Source: an uncultured Planctomycetota bacterium (lineage in GTDB: Bacteria; Planctomycetota; Phycisphaerae; Tepidisphaerales; Tepidisphaeraceae). From it: 64,000 nucleotides of DNA. The stretch is from the NCBI GenBank assembly GCA_963841915.1, contig CAWJEN010000005.1, positions 384,001-448,000 on the forward strand. Direction: 5' to 3'. Below are positions 21,484-33,878 of the stretch, in pieces. How positions within the stretch are numbered: position 1 is the first letter of the stretch; each line of letters opens with the position of its first letter. The translations under genes and the position numbers were made by a program. The notes under the pieces were generated by a model. The model ran no database searches, was not told the DNA's origin, and saw nothing but the letters and a program-made list of their open reading frames with translations.

Positions 21484-22117
21484 GGGCAGACAAAGGAGTC
21501 GCGGGCCTGTTGTTCACCTTGATGGCGAATAAAGGGGTCGCGAGCCTTGTTGTGGCTTACCCGGCATTAGCGGGCCGACATCTGGGCGGCGAATAAAGGG
21601 GTCGGGCGAATAAAGGGGTCGCGAGCCTTTGTTTTGGCTCACCCGGCGGCGAATAAAGGGAGGCGGCGAATAAAGGGGTCGCGAGCCTTTGTTTTGGCTT
21701 ACTTGGCATTAGCGGGCCGACATCTGGGCGAATAAAGGGGTCGCGAGCCTTTGTTTTGGCTTACTTGGCATTAGCGGGCCGACATCTGGCTTGGTGGAGG
21801 GCTGCCGCACGCGGTTCATCTTAATGGATTCCGCCCGTGTCGGACACCGGGCGACGGCGGGCCCCGCGGCCGCAGGACGAGGTGCCAGTGGTTCGGCATC
21901 AGGCACCACGCCAACACGTCGACCCGCTTGGCCTTGCCGGCGAATAAAGGGGTCGCGAGCCTTTGTTTGGGCGAATAAAGGGGGGCGAATAAAGGGGTCG
22001 CGAGCCTTTGTTTTGGCTCACCCGGCATTAGCGGGCCGACACCAGGCATGGTGGAGGGCTGCCGCACGCGGTTCACCGTAATGGATTCCGCCCGTGTCGG
22101 ACAGCGGGCGACGGCGG
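21484..22117 (+). repeat. REP-like array: 9 copies starting GGCGAATAAAGGG plus one degenerate copy
   Basis: Starts at 21524, 21588, 21605, 21648, 21665, 21727, 21939, 21970, 21984; degenerate GGGCAGACAAAGGAGTCGCGGGC at 21484; hairpin AATAAAGG..TCGCGA..CCTTTGTT. Confidence 0.9.
21861..21938 (-). pseudogene. REP-associated tyrosine transposase (RAYT, Y1 HUH) internal fragment
   Basis: Translates VDVLAWCLMPNHWHLVLRPRG, the HUH motif of IS200/RAYT-type transposases. Confidence 0.8.
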
Positions 22118-22449
22118 ACGCTGCGGCAGCGTTCGGAGGGGCGGCGGCACGTTGGGAGCTGCTGCTGGTCAACATTTCTGGCGTCGTGGTGGGATGACGG
22201 GTCTGCTTGCCGAAGGCGTCGGCTGATTCGTCGACGAGTCACCGCTGCAAAGGGCTAGTACGCGATTGGAAGCGGTCCTATCAGGCGACTGTGTTGCGCG
22301 TTGGCGGCCGCGGCGGCGGGTATGTTCTACGACCGCAAACACACGTACGGCGGCCTTCCCTTGTGTTACGGCAAACGCAATCGGTGGCGCTCCGCTTACT
22401 CAGTAAGAACGACCCGTCGACGCGTTTTCATGTGCCGGGCGGTGCCCAT

Positions 22450-28676: not shown

Positions 28677-28747
28677 AGCGACTCGACGGTTGTAGGCGGC
28701 ACGTGATGTCGCCCCGGCGGGCTTCGACCCGCTACCGTCGCGGCCGC

Positions 28748-30367
28748 GTGAATCTGCTCCGCCTCGCATCTCGCCACCGCACAAAGACCCGACGCGTCAT
28801 CCCACGCGCTCGGCGTGACTTGTCGCCGGCACAGCTGTTCGTCCTGAGTTTCGTCGGCCTTGTGGTCGCCGGTGCCGTCGGCTTCCGCGTGCTACCTGGG
28901 CTTTACGCCCCCGGGGCCGATCGGCTGTCGTGGATCGACGCGCTCTTCACCTCGACCAGTGCCGTCTGCGTGACCGGCCTCATCGTCGTCGACACCGCCA
29001 CCCACTTCTCCAGGCTCGGGCAGGCATACGTCCTGCTGCTCATCCAGCTCGGCGGCCTCGGCATGCTCGGGCTCGCCAGCTTCGTCATCCTGACCTTCCG
29101 CGCCCGACTTTCGCTACGACAAGACTCCATCGCCTCGGGTGGCGGCGCAGGCGGGCCCAGCCAAAATGTGCGCACGCGGACGCTCGTTCGCGACGTGCTG
29201 CTCTTCACCTTCTTGGCAGAGTTCATCGGCTTCGTCGCCTTATGGCTGCTGTGGATCGACGACTTCGGCACCATGCACGCCGCTTGGCACGCTTTGTTCC
29301 ACTCGGTCAGCGCCTTCTGCAACGCCGGCTTCAGCACGTTCAGCGACTCGCTCGTCGGCTTCCAACGCGAGCCGCTCACGCTGCTCGTCATCTCCGGTGG
29401 CGTCATCGTCGGCGGCATCGGATTCCTCGCTCTCGAAGAGCTTCGCCTCTGGCTGCGAGCCTGGCGAAAAACCGACGTTGCCCAGTTTCGCCTGTCGCTT
29501 CATACAAGGCTCGTACTCGCCACGACGCTCGTGCTGCTCCTGATCGGCTTTGTCCTCTTCGGTGCTCTCGAGTGGAACAACCCGCAGACGATCGGCCCGA
29601 TGAGCACGATCGACAAGCTCAAAAACGCCTTCTTCATGAGCGTCACGCCCCGAACGGCAGGCTTCAACACGATCGACTACGGGCAGACCCTTCAGGCCAC
29701 GAACTTTACGACCATCCTCTTCATGTCCATCGGCGGAGCCCCGGGCGGCACGGCGGGCGGGCTCAAGGTCACCACCGTCGCTGTCCTCGTCATGATGGCC
29801 TGGTCACGCCTCAAGGCCCGCGCGACCGTCGACGTCTGGGACCGCACGATCCCGTCTGTCACCACGCTGCGAGCGGTCGGATTGTTCGCCTTCAGCTTCG
29901 CCCTCGTGACGGCGGGCATCTTCATGGCAGCCGTCGTGGAGCTCGATCAACGCAGCGAGCAGACGGTCGCGCTGGAGGCCGACGGCTCAGCGACAGCCGT
30001 CGACCTTGCGCCGGAGCAGCCGTTCTCCCCGGCCACGATGCCCTCGACGCAGCCGGCCAGCACGCAACCGTCGACCCAGCCGGCCCAGGAACCACCCGCC
30101 CGCGACGTCCGCCCCGTTCCGCCGGTCCGCCCGATCGAGCCGACCGCCTTCCTAGACGTAATGTTCGAGGCCGTCAGCGCATTCAACACGGTCGGCCTCT
30201 CCACCGGCATTACGCCCAGCCTGACCGACTCAGGTCGCGTGCTGACGATCCTGCTCATGTTCGTCGGCCGTGTCGGCCCCCTCACCATCGCCGCCGCGCT
30301 GAGCCGCAACCTGCCCACCAGCCGCAGCTTCAAGCGCTACGCCCACGAAGACGTCGCAGTGGGCTGA
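28748..30367 (+). CDS. ktrB: Ktr/Trk potassium uptake membrane subunit
   Basis: LFTSTSAVCVTGL, SVSAFCNAGFS, TPRTAGFNT, GGTAGGLK, SAFNTVGLS and MFVGRVG pore motifs. Confidence 0.92.
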   Translation: MNLLRLASRHRTKTRRVIPRARRDLSPAQLFVLSFVGLVVAGAVGFRVLPGLYAPGADRLSWIDALFTSTSAVCVTGLIVVDTATHFSRLGQAYVLLLIQLGGLGMLGLASFVILTFRARLSLRQDSIASGGGAGGPSQNVRTRTLVRDVLLFTFLAEFIGFVALWLLWIDDFGTMHAAWHALFHSVSAFCNAGFSTFSDSLVGFQREPLTLLVISGGVIVGGIGFLALEELRLWLRAWRKTDVAQFRLSLHTRLVLATTLVLLLIGFVLFGALEWNNPQTIGPMSTIDKLKNAFFMSVTPRTAGFNTIDYGQTLQATNFTTILFMSIGGAPGGTAGGLKVTTVAVLVMMAWSRLKARATVDVWDRTIPSVTTLRAVGLFAFSFALVTAGIFMAAVVELDQRSEQTVALEADGSATAVDLAPEQPFSPATMPSTQPASTQPSTQPAQEPPARDVRPVPPVRPIEPTAFLDVMFEAVSAFNTVGLSTGITPSLTDSGRVLTILLMFVGRVGPLTIAAALSRNLPTSRSFKRYAHEDVAVG

Positions 30368-30567
30368 GCTCGTGGTTCTTTTCATTGAGCCGCAAGCGAC
30401 CTGAAGGCATCAATCCCCAATTGGGCACAGGGTCTTCTTTCTGCTCTCGGATGACATGCCTCCCACGCCTGCCGTTAAAGTTCTGCCTCCTATCCGGGTG
30501 CATGCCTCCCTTGCCACGCCGCTACCCGCCGCGTCGCCCCGCCGACAGGTACACGTCTTCCAGACGT

Positions 30568-30590
30568 GCCCGCGACCCCTTTACCTGCCC
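30568..30590 (-). repeat. REP copy, left boundary of the cargo
   Basis: Reverse complement reads GGGCAGGTAAAGGGGTCGCGGGC, same family as the 21.5-kb array. Confidence 0.75.
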
Positions 30591-30759
30591 GATAACGGTC
30601 GCCCCGCAGGCATTGCGGTAGAAGTCGGCCGGCCCCGCGCCGCCTATCCTGGCGTAGGCGTAACCGGCCGCTTGCATGGCGTGGAGACCCGGTGCCACGG
30701 CTTGAGCCGCCGTCTGAGGCGGGCAAGCCGTGTAGGGTTAGGAGCGTCACGGACACGGG

Positions 30760-31467
30760 TTGCCCGCATCGGAATGCGGCTCAATCCGTGGCACCGGGCT
30801 TACTGGCGGCTACTACCTTCGTGCGCCCGCACCGGTGAAGACGCTGACCACGTTTGACCCCGTCAACCGTCCTTCCGGCATTCCCTTCTTCGACACGATC
30901 ATCCGCAACACGATCCAAGGCACGGGCCCGCTGCGGTCGAACGTCAATCGCTTCGTGAACCTGTTCCAAGGCGAGAATAACGGCAAGAGCCCGGCGGACG
31001 GCGTGGACGATCCGACCTCACCCTTCAGCTTCACCCGCTTCGGCACGAGCGAGCCGCGGCCCGGCCACGGCGAGCGACCCGACGAACCTGGCTGGCAGGA
31101 CGTTACTGCCGCCACGGCAGCACCGGGCTCCGGTGCCTGGAACATGCTCCAGCCGTCCTTCACCGGCAATGCCTTCGACGCCTCGGCAGCTGCCGACGTG
31201 GTGCAGATCGACGTCAACCGCAGCGGCGGGGAAGACCCGGGTGTCGCGGGCAACGAATATGCGTGGAAGGACCGCTTCTACTACACGAACAACTTCTACC
31301 TTGACGGCACGGGACAGACCTACGGCCCCAGCGCCTTCAATGACAACGGCGGCGTGTATGGTCGTCACGCCAACCATACGCTGATCGTGCCCTACGCCTA
31401 CGAGTGGCTCTTCGCCGAGATGACCGGCTATGAGCAGGACTATCACCAATACGTGGTGCAGCGATGA
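30760..31467 (+). pseudogene. 5'-truncated C-terminal domain of a putative alpha/beta-hydrolase (lipase-like) toxin
   Basis: No convincing start; VKTLTTFDPV..NV..F.NLFQ...NHTLI pattern; stop codon overlaps the next ATG (ATGA). Confidence 0.5.
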
Positions 31468-32022
31468 GGCAAGTGATCTACCTCCTAAGCGTTCTTCTCA
31501 TGGTCTCAACAGGCTGCTCCAGCCGTCAGCGTCCGACACTTGCGGACGAGCGGATGCCGGAACTTTCGCAGCGAATGGGGCTGGGACAGGAATGGAGTGT
31601 ACGAGGTAACACATAAGATCGAAGTGAGAGGAAGTAAGGAGTTCAACACCACCCTTATCCTCCATGCTCCAGGAGTCAGCAATCCTGTCGGGGTGTCGAC
31701 AGATACGTTCCTTGCTCCCGGCACTCGCCTCCGCACGGATCACGTATGGTTCACACCACCTGAAAAAGGAGTTGGTGTGGCGTCAAGCGTCATCGTCACG
31801 ATGAGGGTGCTACCGGATCACCCCTTCGACCTGCCGCTTTCGCCTGGCAACCTACCCCTGAACTGGATCGCCGCCGGCCAGACGGGCCGGGCTAACGCCT
31901 ACCTCTTACCGGCCAGCCATGCCCGGCTCGTGGAGGATCACGAGCGGACGCCGGAGGATCTAGATCGTGCCCCTGACGAAGAAGCAGGAATGGCCCAAGG
32001 CGCCGGTTCAAGCGGTTTGTGA
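31464..32022 (+). pseudogene. Putative lipoprotein immunity gene, copy 1 (frameshifted)
   Basis: MRQVIYLLSVLLMVSTGC lipoprotein-type signal; frameshift near 31590-31600, continues YEVTHKIEV...NWIAAGQTGRANAYLLPASHARLVEDHE. Confidence 0.6.
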
Positions 32023-32164
32023 GCAGCGCCTTCATGACAACGACAACGGCGGCGTGTATGGCCGTCACGCCAACCATACGCTGATCGTGCCCTACGCCTG
32101 ACGAGTGGCTCTTCGCCGAGATGACCGGCTATGAGCAGGACTATCACCAATACGTGGTGCAGCG

Positions 32165-32831
32165 ATGAGGCAAGTGATCTTCCTAAGCGTTCTTCTCATG
32201 GTCTCAACTGCGAATTGGAAGGCGACAGCCGATGCTGTGACAGAGGATGACGAGGCTGCTCGCAGCCGTCAGCGTCCGACACTGAGTGCGGACGAGCGGA
32301 TGCCGGAACTTTCGCAGCGAGTGGGGCTGGGACAGGAGTATGAGGTAACAGAGAAGAATTCATCCCTCGGAGATCCTGCGGAGCACAGACGGATTCGATA
32401 CTTTCGCGGCTCAAGCTGACACAGCGGAGCAATCATCTCGACGAGAGCCGGCCGCCTCTGTCGGAGTTCCTCGGAAAGTGCAATTGCTCAAGAGCGGGCC
32501 TAACACGGGGACGCACCTTGGCTGACAGTCTTCTCCCGGTCCACGTGTCCGGCGAACACGTCTGGTTTTTGGCTCGGCCGAACGAGGCGTGGGAGTCGCA
32601 TCAGGCATCGGCGTCACGATGCGTGTCTTGCCAGAGCACCCCTTCGAGTACGCTCTGAAGCCTGGCGACCTCCCAACAAACTGGATCGCCGCAGGCCAGA
32701 CGGGCCGGGCTAACGCTTACCTCTTGCCGGCCAGCCACGCCCGGCTCGTGGAGGATCACGAGCTAACGCCGGAGGACGAGATCACGCCCCTGACGAAGCA
32801 GCAGGAGTGGCCAAGGGGCTTCAAGCGTTAG
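32165..32831 (+). pseudogene. Putative lipoprotein immunity gene, copy 2 (disrupted)
   Basis: Paralog of copy 1 with an insertion of about 44 nt at the lipobox and internal stops; ends ...QQEWPRGFKR* at the REP. Confidence 0.6.
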
Positions 32832-32856
32832 GGCAGATAAAGGGGTCGCGAGCCTT
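32831..32856 (+). repeat. REP copy, right boundary of the cargo
   Basis: GGGCAGATAAAGGGGTCGCGAGCCTT. Confidence 0.85.
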
Positions 32857-32878
32857 GGATGCCTTGGTAGCGTGCCTG

Positions 32879-33019
32879 ATGCCACGCACGCCTCGTGAAG
32901 CGCCCGGCGAATTCGTCTACCACGTGCTCAATCAAGCCGTTGCCCGTCCCGCTACCTGCGAGTCAGGCGGCGACGACGCAGCGTTCGTCTAGGTCTTTCG
33001 CCAAGCCGTCGAGCGGCAG
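32879..33019 (+). pseudogene. RAYT transposase N-terminal fragment
   Basis: MPRTPREAPGEFVYHVLNQAVAR...DDAAFV*VFRQAVERQ; matches the MPR..R....YHV.NR start of Y1/RAYT transposases; premature TAG at 32990. Confidence 0.75.
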
Positions 33020-33106
33020 GATGGACTGGCCAACGAGGGCAAGGCGAACCGGGTCGATGTATAGGCGTGGTGCCCCACCCCCACCCCCACCTCCACCCAT
33101 CCCCGT

Positions 33107-33140
33107 CGGTCGGCGGTCGGCGGTCGGCGGTCGGCGGTCG
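33107..33140 (+). repeat. Heptamer tandem repeat (CGGTCGG)x4.9
   Basis: Read directly; preceded by CCCCCA-type repeats at 33073-33104. Confidence 0.8.
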
Positions 33141-33224: not shown

Positions 33225-33878
33225 ATGAAGCGTTACGTCATTGTCGGCCTCGGCAACTTTGGCAGCAGTGTCTGCGAGACGCTGTACGCCCGCGGGCATG
33301 AGGTCATCGCCGTCGATATGCGGGAAGAGGCGGTCGATCGCGTCGCACAATTCGCCAGTCGGTCGGCAGTGGCGGATGGCACGGACGTCTCGGTCCTGCG
33401 GCGGCTCGGGGCCGAGGGGGCGGATGCAGGCGTCGTCGGCACGGGTGACGACATCTCAGCGAGCATCCTGGCGTCGATGGCGCTCAAGGACATCAAGGTC
33501 GAGCAGACCATCGCCAAGGTCATCTCCAATGAGCACGACCGCGTCATGAAAAAGCTCGGCGTCGACGAGACCGTCTTCCCCGAACGCGACACGGCCCAAA
33601 ATCTTGTCGCCCGCATGCTCGGGCCGGCGTTGCTGAACTATGTAAGGCTCGGGCCTGACTACGGGTTGCAGGAGATGGCGGTCCCCAACAAGTGGGACGG
33701 CCGCACGCTTCGCGACCTCAACCTGCGGCAAAAGCACGGCGTCCTCGTCGTCGGCATCCACGACGTGCTCACCGACACCGTCCGCAGCCCCGACCCCGAC
33801 GCGGTGCTGACCGACAGTGACGGCCTGCTCATCAGCGGAAGCATCAAAGATCTCGAGCACGTGGCAGAGATCAAGTAG
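33225..33878 (+). CDS. ktrA: Ktr/Trk potassium uptake RCK regulatory subunit
   Basis: VIVGLGNFG, VIAVD, VFPERD motifs and a TrkA-C domain. Confidence 0.92.
   Translation: MKRYVIVGLGNFGSSVCETLYARGHEVIAVDMREEAVDRVAQFASRSAVADGTDVSVLRRLGAEGADAGVVGTGDDISASILASMALKDIKVEQTIAKVISNEHDRVMKKLGVDETVFPERDTAQNLVARMLGPALLNYVRLGPDYGLQEMAVPNKWDGRTLRDLNLRQKHGVLVVGIHDVLTDTVRSPDPDAVLTDSDGLLISGSIKDLEHVAEIK

Follow-up and report, generated by a model that had tools for sequence, protein, structure and literature searches.

The potassium transporter gene ktrB and its neighbour ktrA lie 2.86 kb apart in an uncultured planctomycete of the family Tepidisphaeraceae, within the 64,000-nt stretch analysed here as the window (G000:C5:384001-448000; GenBank assembly GCA_963841915.1, contig CAWJEN010000005.1). 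The DNA between them is a decayed mosaic: it contains what is left of a GNAT gene, a hairpin from a second repeat family, a likely toxin tail with two lipoprotein genes that are likely for immunity, and the left-hand end of a TIRtron, an element made of a Y1 transposase gene and its terminal inverted repeats (TIRs). The host genome (G000) comprises 3.63 Mb in six contigs (C1 to C6), with 64% GC and 93.8% completeness; G001 to G004 denote its congeners, and L-numbers denote loci from G000 and other genomes. As a preliminary description of this DNA had stated, ktrB and ktrA are normally adjacent: the gap between them is 75, 28, 118 and 87 bp in the four congeners (4/4), so the insert is derived, and the two genes are also adjacent in two further genomes of the family. 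Within the insert, inverted 23-nt arms (30568-30590 and 32831-32853) point outward at a spacing of 2240 nt, and the stop codon of the final cargo gene ends at 32831, 0 nt before the right repeat (Table 1). No promoter-like site was found in the insert.

Table 1. Features of the ktrB-ktrA interval and of a second TIR cluster, in window coordinates
Feature	Position	Strand	Basis
ktrB/trkH potassium transporter, left flank	28703..30367	+	Pfam TrkH, E 1.5e-55
DNA outside the left repeat, 200 bp	30368..30567	.	unmatched in congener spacers and the loci compared
Left TIR, lone, truncated at inner (3′) end; 5′ end abuts GNAT remnant	30568..30590	-	
GNAT acetyltransferase remnant, 32 codons	30591..30686	-	nt identity to congener genes
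Second-family hairpin, 111 bp; cut point for toxin tail and GNAT remnant	30688..30798	.	46-nt arms
Alpha/beta-hydrolase (lipase-fold) tip-domain tail, headless	30799..31467	+	similarity to carrier C-termini
Lipoprotein-like gene copy 1, frameshifted, likely immunity	31464..32022	+	gene-order rule in relatives
Tandem duplicate: last 130 bp of toxin gene and lipoprotein copy 2	32038..32831	+	
Right TIR, left end of decayed TIRtron	32831..32858	+	start-codon spacing as in intact C6 copy
TIRYT (RAYT-family Y1) transposase gene, 5′ remnant, in-frame stops	32879..33110	+	78% nt identity to intact copy C6:1462938-1463678
ktrA/trkA, right flank	33225..33878	+	Pfam TrkA_N, TrkA_C
Second TIR cluster of the window: stuttered same-direction copies, one fused to a mid-transposase fragment	21484..22130	+	

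Judging by its sequence, the repeat is the TIR of a TIRtron and not a classical repetitive extragenic palindrome (REP), so that the outward copies of the preliminary description stand with their coordinates and spacing, and the REP label does not. In particular, the repeat forms a weak hairpin (-2.1 kcal/mol) without a GTAG foot, has GGCAGAT and variants as its foot, and shows a sharp 5′ border 10 nt ahead of its GGGG core. The core in G000 is GGGGTCGC, which agrees with GGGGWSAS at 7 of 8 positions, and relatives have the exact GGGGTCAG. The target duplication at TIR doublets is 0-1 nt (7/7 doublets). The genome holds 62 copies within 5 mismatches; by motif there are 72 matches, compared to 1 in the reversed genome, and apart from 8 isolated poor matches the remaining copies (about 64) fall into 12 clusters. 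The chance that two independent repeat loci would lie within 2.3 kb of each other is about 0.015-0.045, and the flanking of the cargo by repeats is accordingly unlikely to be due to chance.

An intact copy of the transposase gene lies at C6:1462938-1463678 with a repeat just upstream, and encodes a 246 aa protein (median 238) that scores above the Pfam cut-off for Y1_Tnp, has the motifs NHWH and YVEQN, and matches the NCBIfam RAYT model under its cut-off (E 5.8e-14); no match to a helix-turn-helix (HTH) family was found in it at E 0.05. The right repeat of the window together with the following 230 bp aligns with this copy at 78%, with no frame change. The right repeat is therefore the left end of a dead TIRtron copy, and the transposase remnant described behind it is real. 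Moreover, the repeat core was found at 76 of 79 related transposase loci, as GGGGTCAG, GGTGTCAG or GGGGTCGG, mostly in inward pairs and often stuttered. Many relatives' transposase loci show both element ends as inward TIRs; the intact G000 and G001 copies have the upstream TIR and no matching TIR right behind the gene. Repeat type changes 11 times on a quick transposase tree against a shuffled mean of 25.5 (50 of 58 rows, with 8 dropped for want of a motif match), which indicates clustering only, because kin share labels. Within the genus, G000, G001, G002 and G004 have both repeat and transposase, and G003 has neither; the exact TIR gave 0 matches in the metagenome contigs. The element probably belongs to TnpA-Y1 subclass 2.1 as outlined in the accessible text of Quentin et al. 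(PMC6006769), an assignment in which that paper's own sequences had no part.

G000 also carries a second, diverged low-GC TIRYT-like gene whose catalytic Tyr motif looks altered (L041; G000:C5:936100-936750, minus strand). Fusions between the end of a DDE insertion sequence and a TIR core recur at L040 (5827-6040) and in congeners, which suggests that this insertion sequence targets the TIR. L089 (G000:C3:46778-49990) holds a 1365-codon open reading frame (ORF) that reads as valyl-tRNA synthetase and includes, in frame, a Y1-transposase domain accompanied by palindromes of its own.

The headless gene of the insert is 40-44% identical to the C-termini of FN3/dockerin proteins of 1768 and 714 aa. 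A profile search returned 70 relatives of this tip domain with a near-invariant GxSxG serine, Asp and His; the window tail keeps the conserved Asp and His and lacks the serine, and since it begins downstream of that residue it cannot be active. The predicted structure of the full tip domain (pLDDT 74) is an alpha/beta-hydrolase, with Tle1 and TleB among the top fold matches (Z 10.2-10.8), level with ordinary lipases. Foldseek with the tip-domain model gave no match at E 0.001 or better, and DUF2235 had no match among 34 proteins scanned. The domain is carried by FN3/dockerin/Calx-beta proteins of up to 1918 aa and by one RHS protein, and there are about 14 near-full-length matches across 140 family genomes. 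A narrow tip profile matched G000 only among 401 genomes of the phylum, the broad profile did find relatives, and tip-family scans of genome and metagenome contigs found none. A full-length toxin parent, sought as the preliminary description had proposed, was found neither by tblastn nor by profile in G000, with its 93.8% completeness. The hydrolase is likely an antibacterial lipase, with toxicity as a prediction. At L226-L243, in family genomes, secreted FN3/dockerin proteins tipped by a Ser-Asp-His hydrolase are followed by variable lipoproteins, and no Pfam model was found there for either the tip domain or these lipoproteins.

The first lipoprotein gene starts in an overlap with the toxin stop and has a signal ending in GC. 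The second copy is 97-99% identical to the first at the 5′ end, diverged in the middle and about 80% identical at the 3′ end, and it carries several small insertions. Thus, the headless toxin-like C-terminus and two tandem lipoproteins of the preliminary description are present, with the amendments that the second is part of a tandem duplicate and that both are frameshifted. The window lipoprotein has no homologue among the sequences searched. Gene order is informative in the relatives: by a fixed rule, a small lipoprotein-like gene follows the hydrolase at 12 of 17 loci, versus 12 of 758 long control genes of G000, and at 17 of 17 when judged by eye (these loci being the strongest of 30 returned by the broad family search, own genome excluded). 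The tip-family profile, the fold and this gene order uphold the view of the cargo as a toxin-tail/immunity-like module, which likely belongs to a lipase-tip/lipoprotein family of such modules; the two lipoproteins are likely antidotes to the lipase, their binding and neutralisation being predicted from gene order. As read from its genes, the module at ktrB-ktrA is nonfunctional, having no catalytic serine, frameshifted lipoproteins and a dead transposase copy.

The preliminary description had both repeat 5′ ends bordering the cargo, which is correct on the right side but not on the left. Between the left repeat and the toxin tail, inside the TIR pair, lie the GNAT remnant (97 bp), which the repeat abuts, and the second-family hairpin. 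The remnant has 81-86% nt identity to intact genes in two congeners (a congener's intact gene matches Pfam Acetyltransf_1) and is the sole piece of that gene found in G000; the TIR cuts it before its last codons, and no continuation of the gene end was found beyond the left repeat. The hairpin, with a z of -11, belongs to a family of about 110-bp hairpins with 37 merged matches in G000. The hairpin is the point where the GNAT remnant and the toxin tail face each other head to head, and the toxin was therefore cut there and not at the TIR; its head was likely lost in a separate deletion at this point that would have removed both heads. Because the toxin was truncated at a hairpin of another repeat family and the left border holds part of a GNAT gene native to the genus, the findings do not support the earlier view of the locus as a single captured unit.

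The ktrB-ktrA locus illustrates a real pattern, though weakly and in decayed form. When TIR pairs in G000 were listed at spacings of 200-3000 nt, as had been proposed for inverted pairs, 11 were outward, 0 inward and 5 direct. The cargo of 9 of the 11 outward pairs falls in the lowest 5% of G000 by GC, and 6 of 12 TIR clusters touch a low-GC island, versus 0.19 expected; for the second repeat family the count is 0 of 24. Of the 21 low-GC islands, 15 have no TIR. C6:1459.7-1463.7 kb holds three single-gene cargoes of low GC, all in the same orientation and each between TIRs; doublets of 154-163 bp separate them, and the intact transposase follows. Across the 8 cargoes measured, the stop codon lies 0-40 nt from the TIR or within it.

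Congeners contribute 10 further outward pairs, for 21 in the genus. The main ORFs of 19 of these 21 cargoes were scanned, and 3 scored above a Pfam cut-off (ankyrin, DUF1559 and DUF4304), whereas 16 did not. Only 2-4 of the 21 are toxin/immunity cargoes, which does not support the earlier idea of a system specific for immunity genes. Two of them are firm, the window and L079; in the latter, an HNH tail begins at the TIR and a YrhA/SMI1-like gene comes next. One more, behind an Rhs locus, qualifies by position only. The DUF4304 cargo would be another, DUF4304 being presumably an immunity family. The accessible text of PMC3482391 has 0 mentions of DUF4304. Short stubs at other cassettes have no Pfam match, and their toxin origin is therefore a reading only. 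Further, the asnS-groEL interval holds TIRs with differing contents in four genomes, and stub-similar cassettes beside the transposase in G000 and G001 hold unrelated genes. No cargo was seen at two sites or in two genomes among the G000 segments and compared loci, a weak test with a sample of five different species; movement of the cassette as a unit, as proposed earlier, is not borne out at this sampling.

At L039 (3741-6500), a frameshifted Rhs gene has a nuclease-like tip and a 268-aa partner without a family match, with a TIR stutter directly downstream; no support was found for calling the gene behind the Rhs locus 'CdiI-like'. Elsewhere, the 3′ end of thiG is repeated several times with other DNA between the copies (G000:C5:864300-866320 and 572897-572978, L072), and in the G001 asnS-groEL interval the 3′ ends of ychF, asnS and groEL are repeated in the same manner. 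These repeated ends of housekeeping genes suggest something resembling a second stacking mechanism at gene ends. Around the ktr genes, a C-rich low-complexity and GGTCGGC tandem tract lies at the end of the transposase remnant (33075-33140), the congeners' ktrB-ktrA spacers have different short tandem tracts, and KtrB contains a Pro/Thr-rich stretch of about 70 residues ahead of its last membrane segment that is mostly unaligned in relatives.

Fenced cargo extends beyond the genus. Of the TIR pairs around 76 transposase loci, 22 are outward, 9 direct and 4 inward; 5 of the 22 outward pairs are in L090, which overlaps congener DNA already counted. The cargo at these loci is mixed, comprising an Rhs core with a leucine-rich repeat gene as well as fasciclin, AraC, acyltransferase, sulfate permease and CsrA genes. 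TIRs cut within genes at the GNAT gene, the HNH tail, a hydrolase tail in another genus, an Rhs core (L114) and the transposase itself, and they cut toxin tails in two other genomes, one of which has the same layout of a lipase tail and two lipoproteins; the same repeat class cuts toxin tails in other genomes (L243/L256, L079 and L114). At L243/L256, in another genus, a toxin-like gene and small genes (read from ORFs) precede an intact TIRYT gene and a fenced gene, after which comes a headless hydrolase of the same family whose start lies at a TIR, with two lipoproteins behind it; in L256 this module ends on the right at a DDE insertion sequence, not a TIR. At L257, a TIR doublet lies 3-4 nt behind the lipoprotein stop of an intact toxin-immunity pair.

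On balance, we consider it probable that the ktrB-ktrA insert arose when the TIRtron transposase joined its repeat ends to unrelated DNA, and that such TIR-end joining traps and trims foreign DNA. The observed joints share a signature: a sharp 5′ border, no target duplication, stutters that restart at the border, element pieces of variable length behind the TIRs, and gene joints in mid-frame. In the proposed mechanism, TIRYT would nick at the 5′ border of the TIR, its tyrosine would hold the 5′ end of the repeat, and the held end would be joined to available 3′ ends, yielding stutters, one-ended pieces and adjacent deletions. Two joints facing apart would then fence foreign genes. Selection would keep immunity genes and drop toxin heads, and pieces of toxin loci may therefore recur without a system built for them; at ktrB-ktrA, the head would have been lost separately, through the deletion at the second hairpin. 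In the accessible text on related RAYTs, a 5′-phosphotyrosine link is formed in vitro and joined to a 3′-OH (PMC8266576).

Several observations weigh against this mechanism. Its joining chemistry is borrowed, by analogy, from other RAYT subclasses and not from TIRYT, and the joints are known from assemblies alone. The window cargo is not low in GC (0.62, 11th percentile), and the outward pairs are not independent, because two neighbouring doublets always yield an outward pair; three of the pairs are in one array. A clean empty site exists at ktrB-ktrA only, the five other compared loci being synteny breaks or long variable intervals. Moreover, most of 26 further TIR sites in six distant genomes are single copies beside ordinary genes; one array lies among them, in a closed Singulisphaera genome (L214). 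In a wider reading, the TIRtrons of Planctomycetota would be an HUH-based gene capture system. The transposase would ligate incoming DNA at both of its ends to activated repeat ends and build arrays from the pieces, so that cells could gather immunity genes from rivals' toxin loci without homology, and the ktrB-ktrA insert would be a fossil containing a lipase-toxin/lipoprotein module; we offer this only tentatively, as a possibility with the balance clearly against it.

The pattern also invites the stronger explanation of a dedicated, integron-like capture, in which TIR pairs delimit toxin-tail/immunity cassettes as mobile units; the transposase would excise, stack and shuffle them, and the ktrB-ktrA insert would be an old one. 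The C6 array that ends in an intact transposase, the position of the cargo stops close to or inside TIRs, the headless hydrolase and two lipoproteins beside an intact TIRYT gene in another genus, the TIR-fenced stub and gene directly behind an Rhs locus, the similar Singulisphaera array and the differing asnS-groEL contents are what such a system would leave. Yet no cargo recurs at two sites or in two genomes, the stub-similar cassettes of G000 and G001 hold unrelated genes, the ktrB-ktrA toxin was cut at another repeat, L256 ends in an insertion sequence, and the cargo elsewhere ranges from fasciclin to CsrA genes, all of which makes a dedicated system unlikely. The opposite explanation treats the repeats as passive markers: foreign DNA, AT-rich or unselected, would have come in by other routes and received TIR copies or doublets, and deletions afterwards would mimic cassettes. 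Consistent with it, 15 of the 17 relatives' lipase-lipoprotein loci have no adjacent TIR, so that cargo without repeat boundaries, which the preliminary description had named as evidence against a repeat-bounded cassette, is found in part; the L257 doublet behind an intact pair, the TIR-free low-GC islands and lone TIRs beside native genes point the same way. However, after plain insertion the rest of the cut gene would be expected across the repeat, and no GNAT end is present there; toxin stubs begin precisely at the border of the TIR, and the second repeat family has no link to islands. Passive marking is thus also unlikely. In turn, errors in this metagenome-assembled genome might have produced the duplicate, the insertions and the stuttered repeats, and the differences of copy 2 are indeed nearly all small insertions. 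An assembly check gave 0 frame changes in 33 orthologous genes across 35.5 kb of G000, which makes decay of the lipoproteins likelier than error; the middle of copy 2 is diverged and not a noisy copy, stutters recur in many independent assemblies, and tandem lipoproteins are also present in L256. Error is therefore very improbable, and at most it would affect the state of the lipoprotein genes.

Integrons stack co-oriented, promoterless single genes beside a recombinase-like gene, with stops near the repeat, and they use a tyrosine recombinase and one attC per cargo. The TIR-fenced arrays are similar in their co-oriented single genes, their recombinase-like neighbour and their stops near the repeat, but they have an HUH enzyme, two outward ends per cargo and many cargoes that begin with gene stubs, and their mobility is putative. 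As given in the accessible text of Di Nocera et al. (2013, PMC3733652), TIRtrons consist of a Y1 (HUH) transposase gene, TIRYT, between inverted repeats with a GGGGWSAS-like core, and the repeats are also dispersed as dimers or clusters. The element here shares the link between transposase and repeat and the dispersed dimers and clusters; its GGGGTCGC core is one change from the consensus, and the protein tail has no HTH match. Subclass 2.1 is described, in the accessible text of Quentin et al. (2018, PMC6006769), as a long protein with a C-terminal HTH-like domain. The accessible texts of these two papers, whose supplements were outside the scope and may list flanking genes, contain no passenger genes, toxin stubs, stutters or fenced-gene arrays. 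Classical REP/RAYT groups 2 and 3 have a GTAG foot and a stable palindrome, and the repeat here has neither. Compared to REPtrons, RAYT-REP systems and REPINs, as far as the accessible texts describe them (PMC5581495, PMC8266576), the enzyme family is the same and the repeats likewise outnumber a single intact gene, but about 64 weak hairpins without a GTAG foot lie in 12 clusters tied to foreign DNA, unlike REPs, which spread through intergenic space.

Polymorphic toxin systems, according to the accessible text of Zhang et al. (2012, PMC3482391), have a large secreted carrier, a variable C-terminal enzyme tip, a toxin-then-immunity order and headless cassettes, and alpha/beta-hydrolases are among their tips. 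The lipase-tip family resembles them in its enzyme tip on large secreted carriers and in the small immunity-like gene directly downstream, and it is unlike them in its FN3/dockerin-type carrier and a tip without a Pfam family. Further, in polymorphic toxin systems a cassette recombines with the full gene and so replaces its tip, whereas G000 yielded no parent gene and the starts of the stubs coincide with repeat joints. Among known lipase effectors, Tle/Tli pairs have a lipoprotein as the immunity protein (10.1101/2023.03.28.534661, accessible text) and share the order of alpha/beta-hydrolase and lipoprotein gene; the likeness is limited by fold scores level with ordinary lipases and by the absence of DUF2235, with activity and binding here predicted. 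No description of a link between TIRtrons and toxin-immunity modules was found in the open-access literature, a search that did not cover the supplements of the TIRYT papers, and the accessible parts of two preprints (10.64898/2026.07.13.738213 and 10.1101/2024.07.17.603846) do not describe it. TIRtrons and orphan toxin-immunity modules are each known, and the linkage between them is apparently new.

No Pfam model covers the lipase-tip/lipoprotein toxin-immunity-like family, and about 14 of 140 family genomes encode a full-length member of it. RAYT-family transposases are widespread, and the accessible text of PMC5581495 treats the reason for their retention by hosts as an open question; their TIRYT branch is little studied, with only two works on it in the open-access literature searched. 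If TIR ends are indeed joined to foreign DNA, RAYT-family enzymes would gain a role: with no need for homology, they would take up and trim accessory genes, immunity genes in particular.

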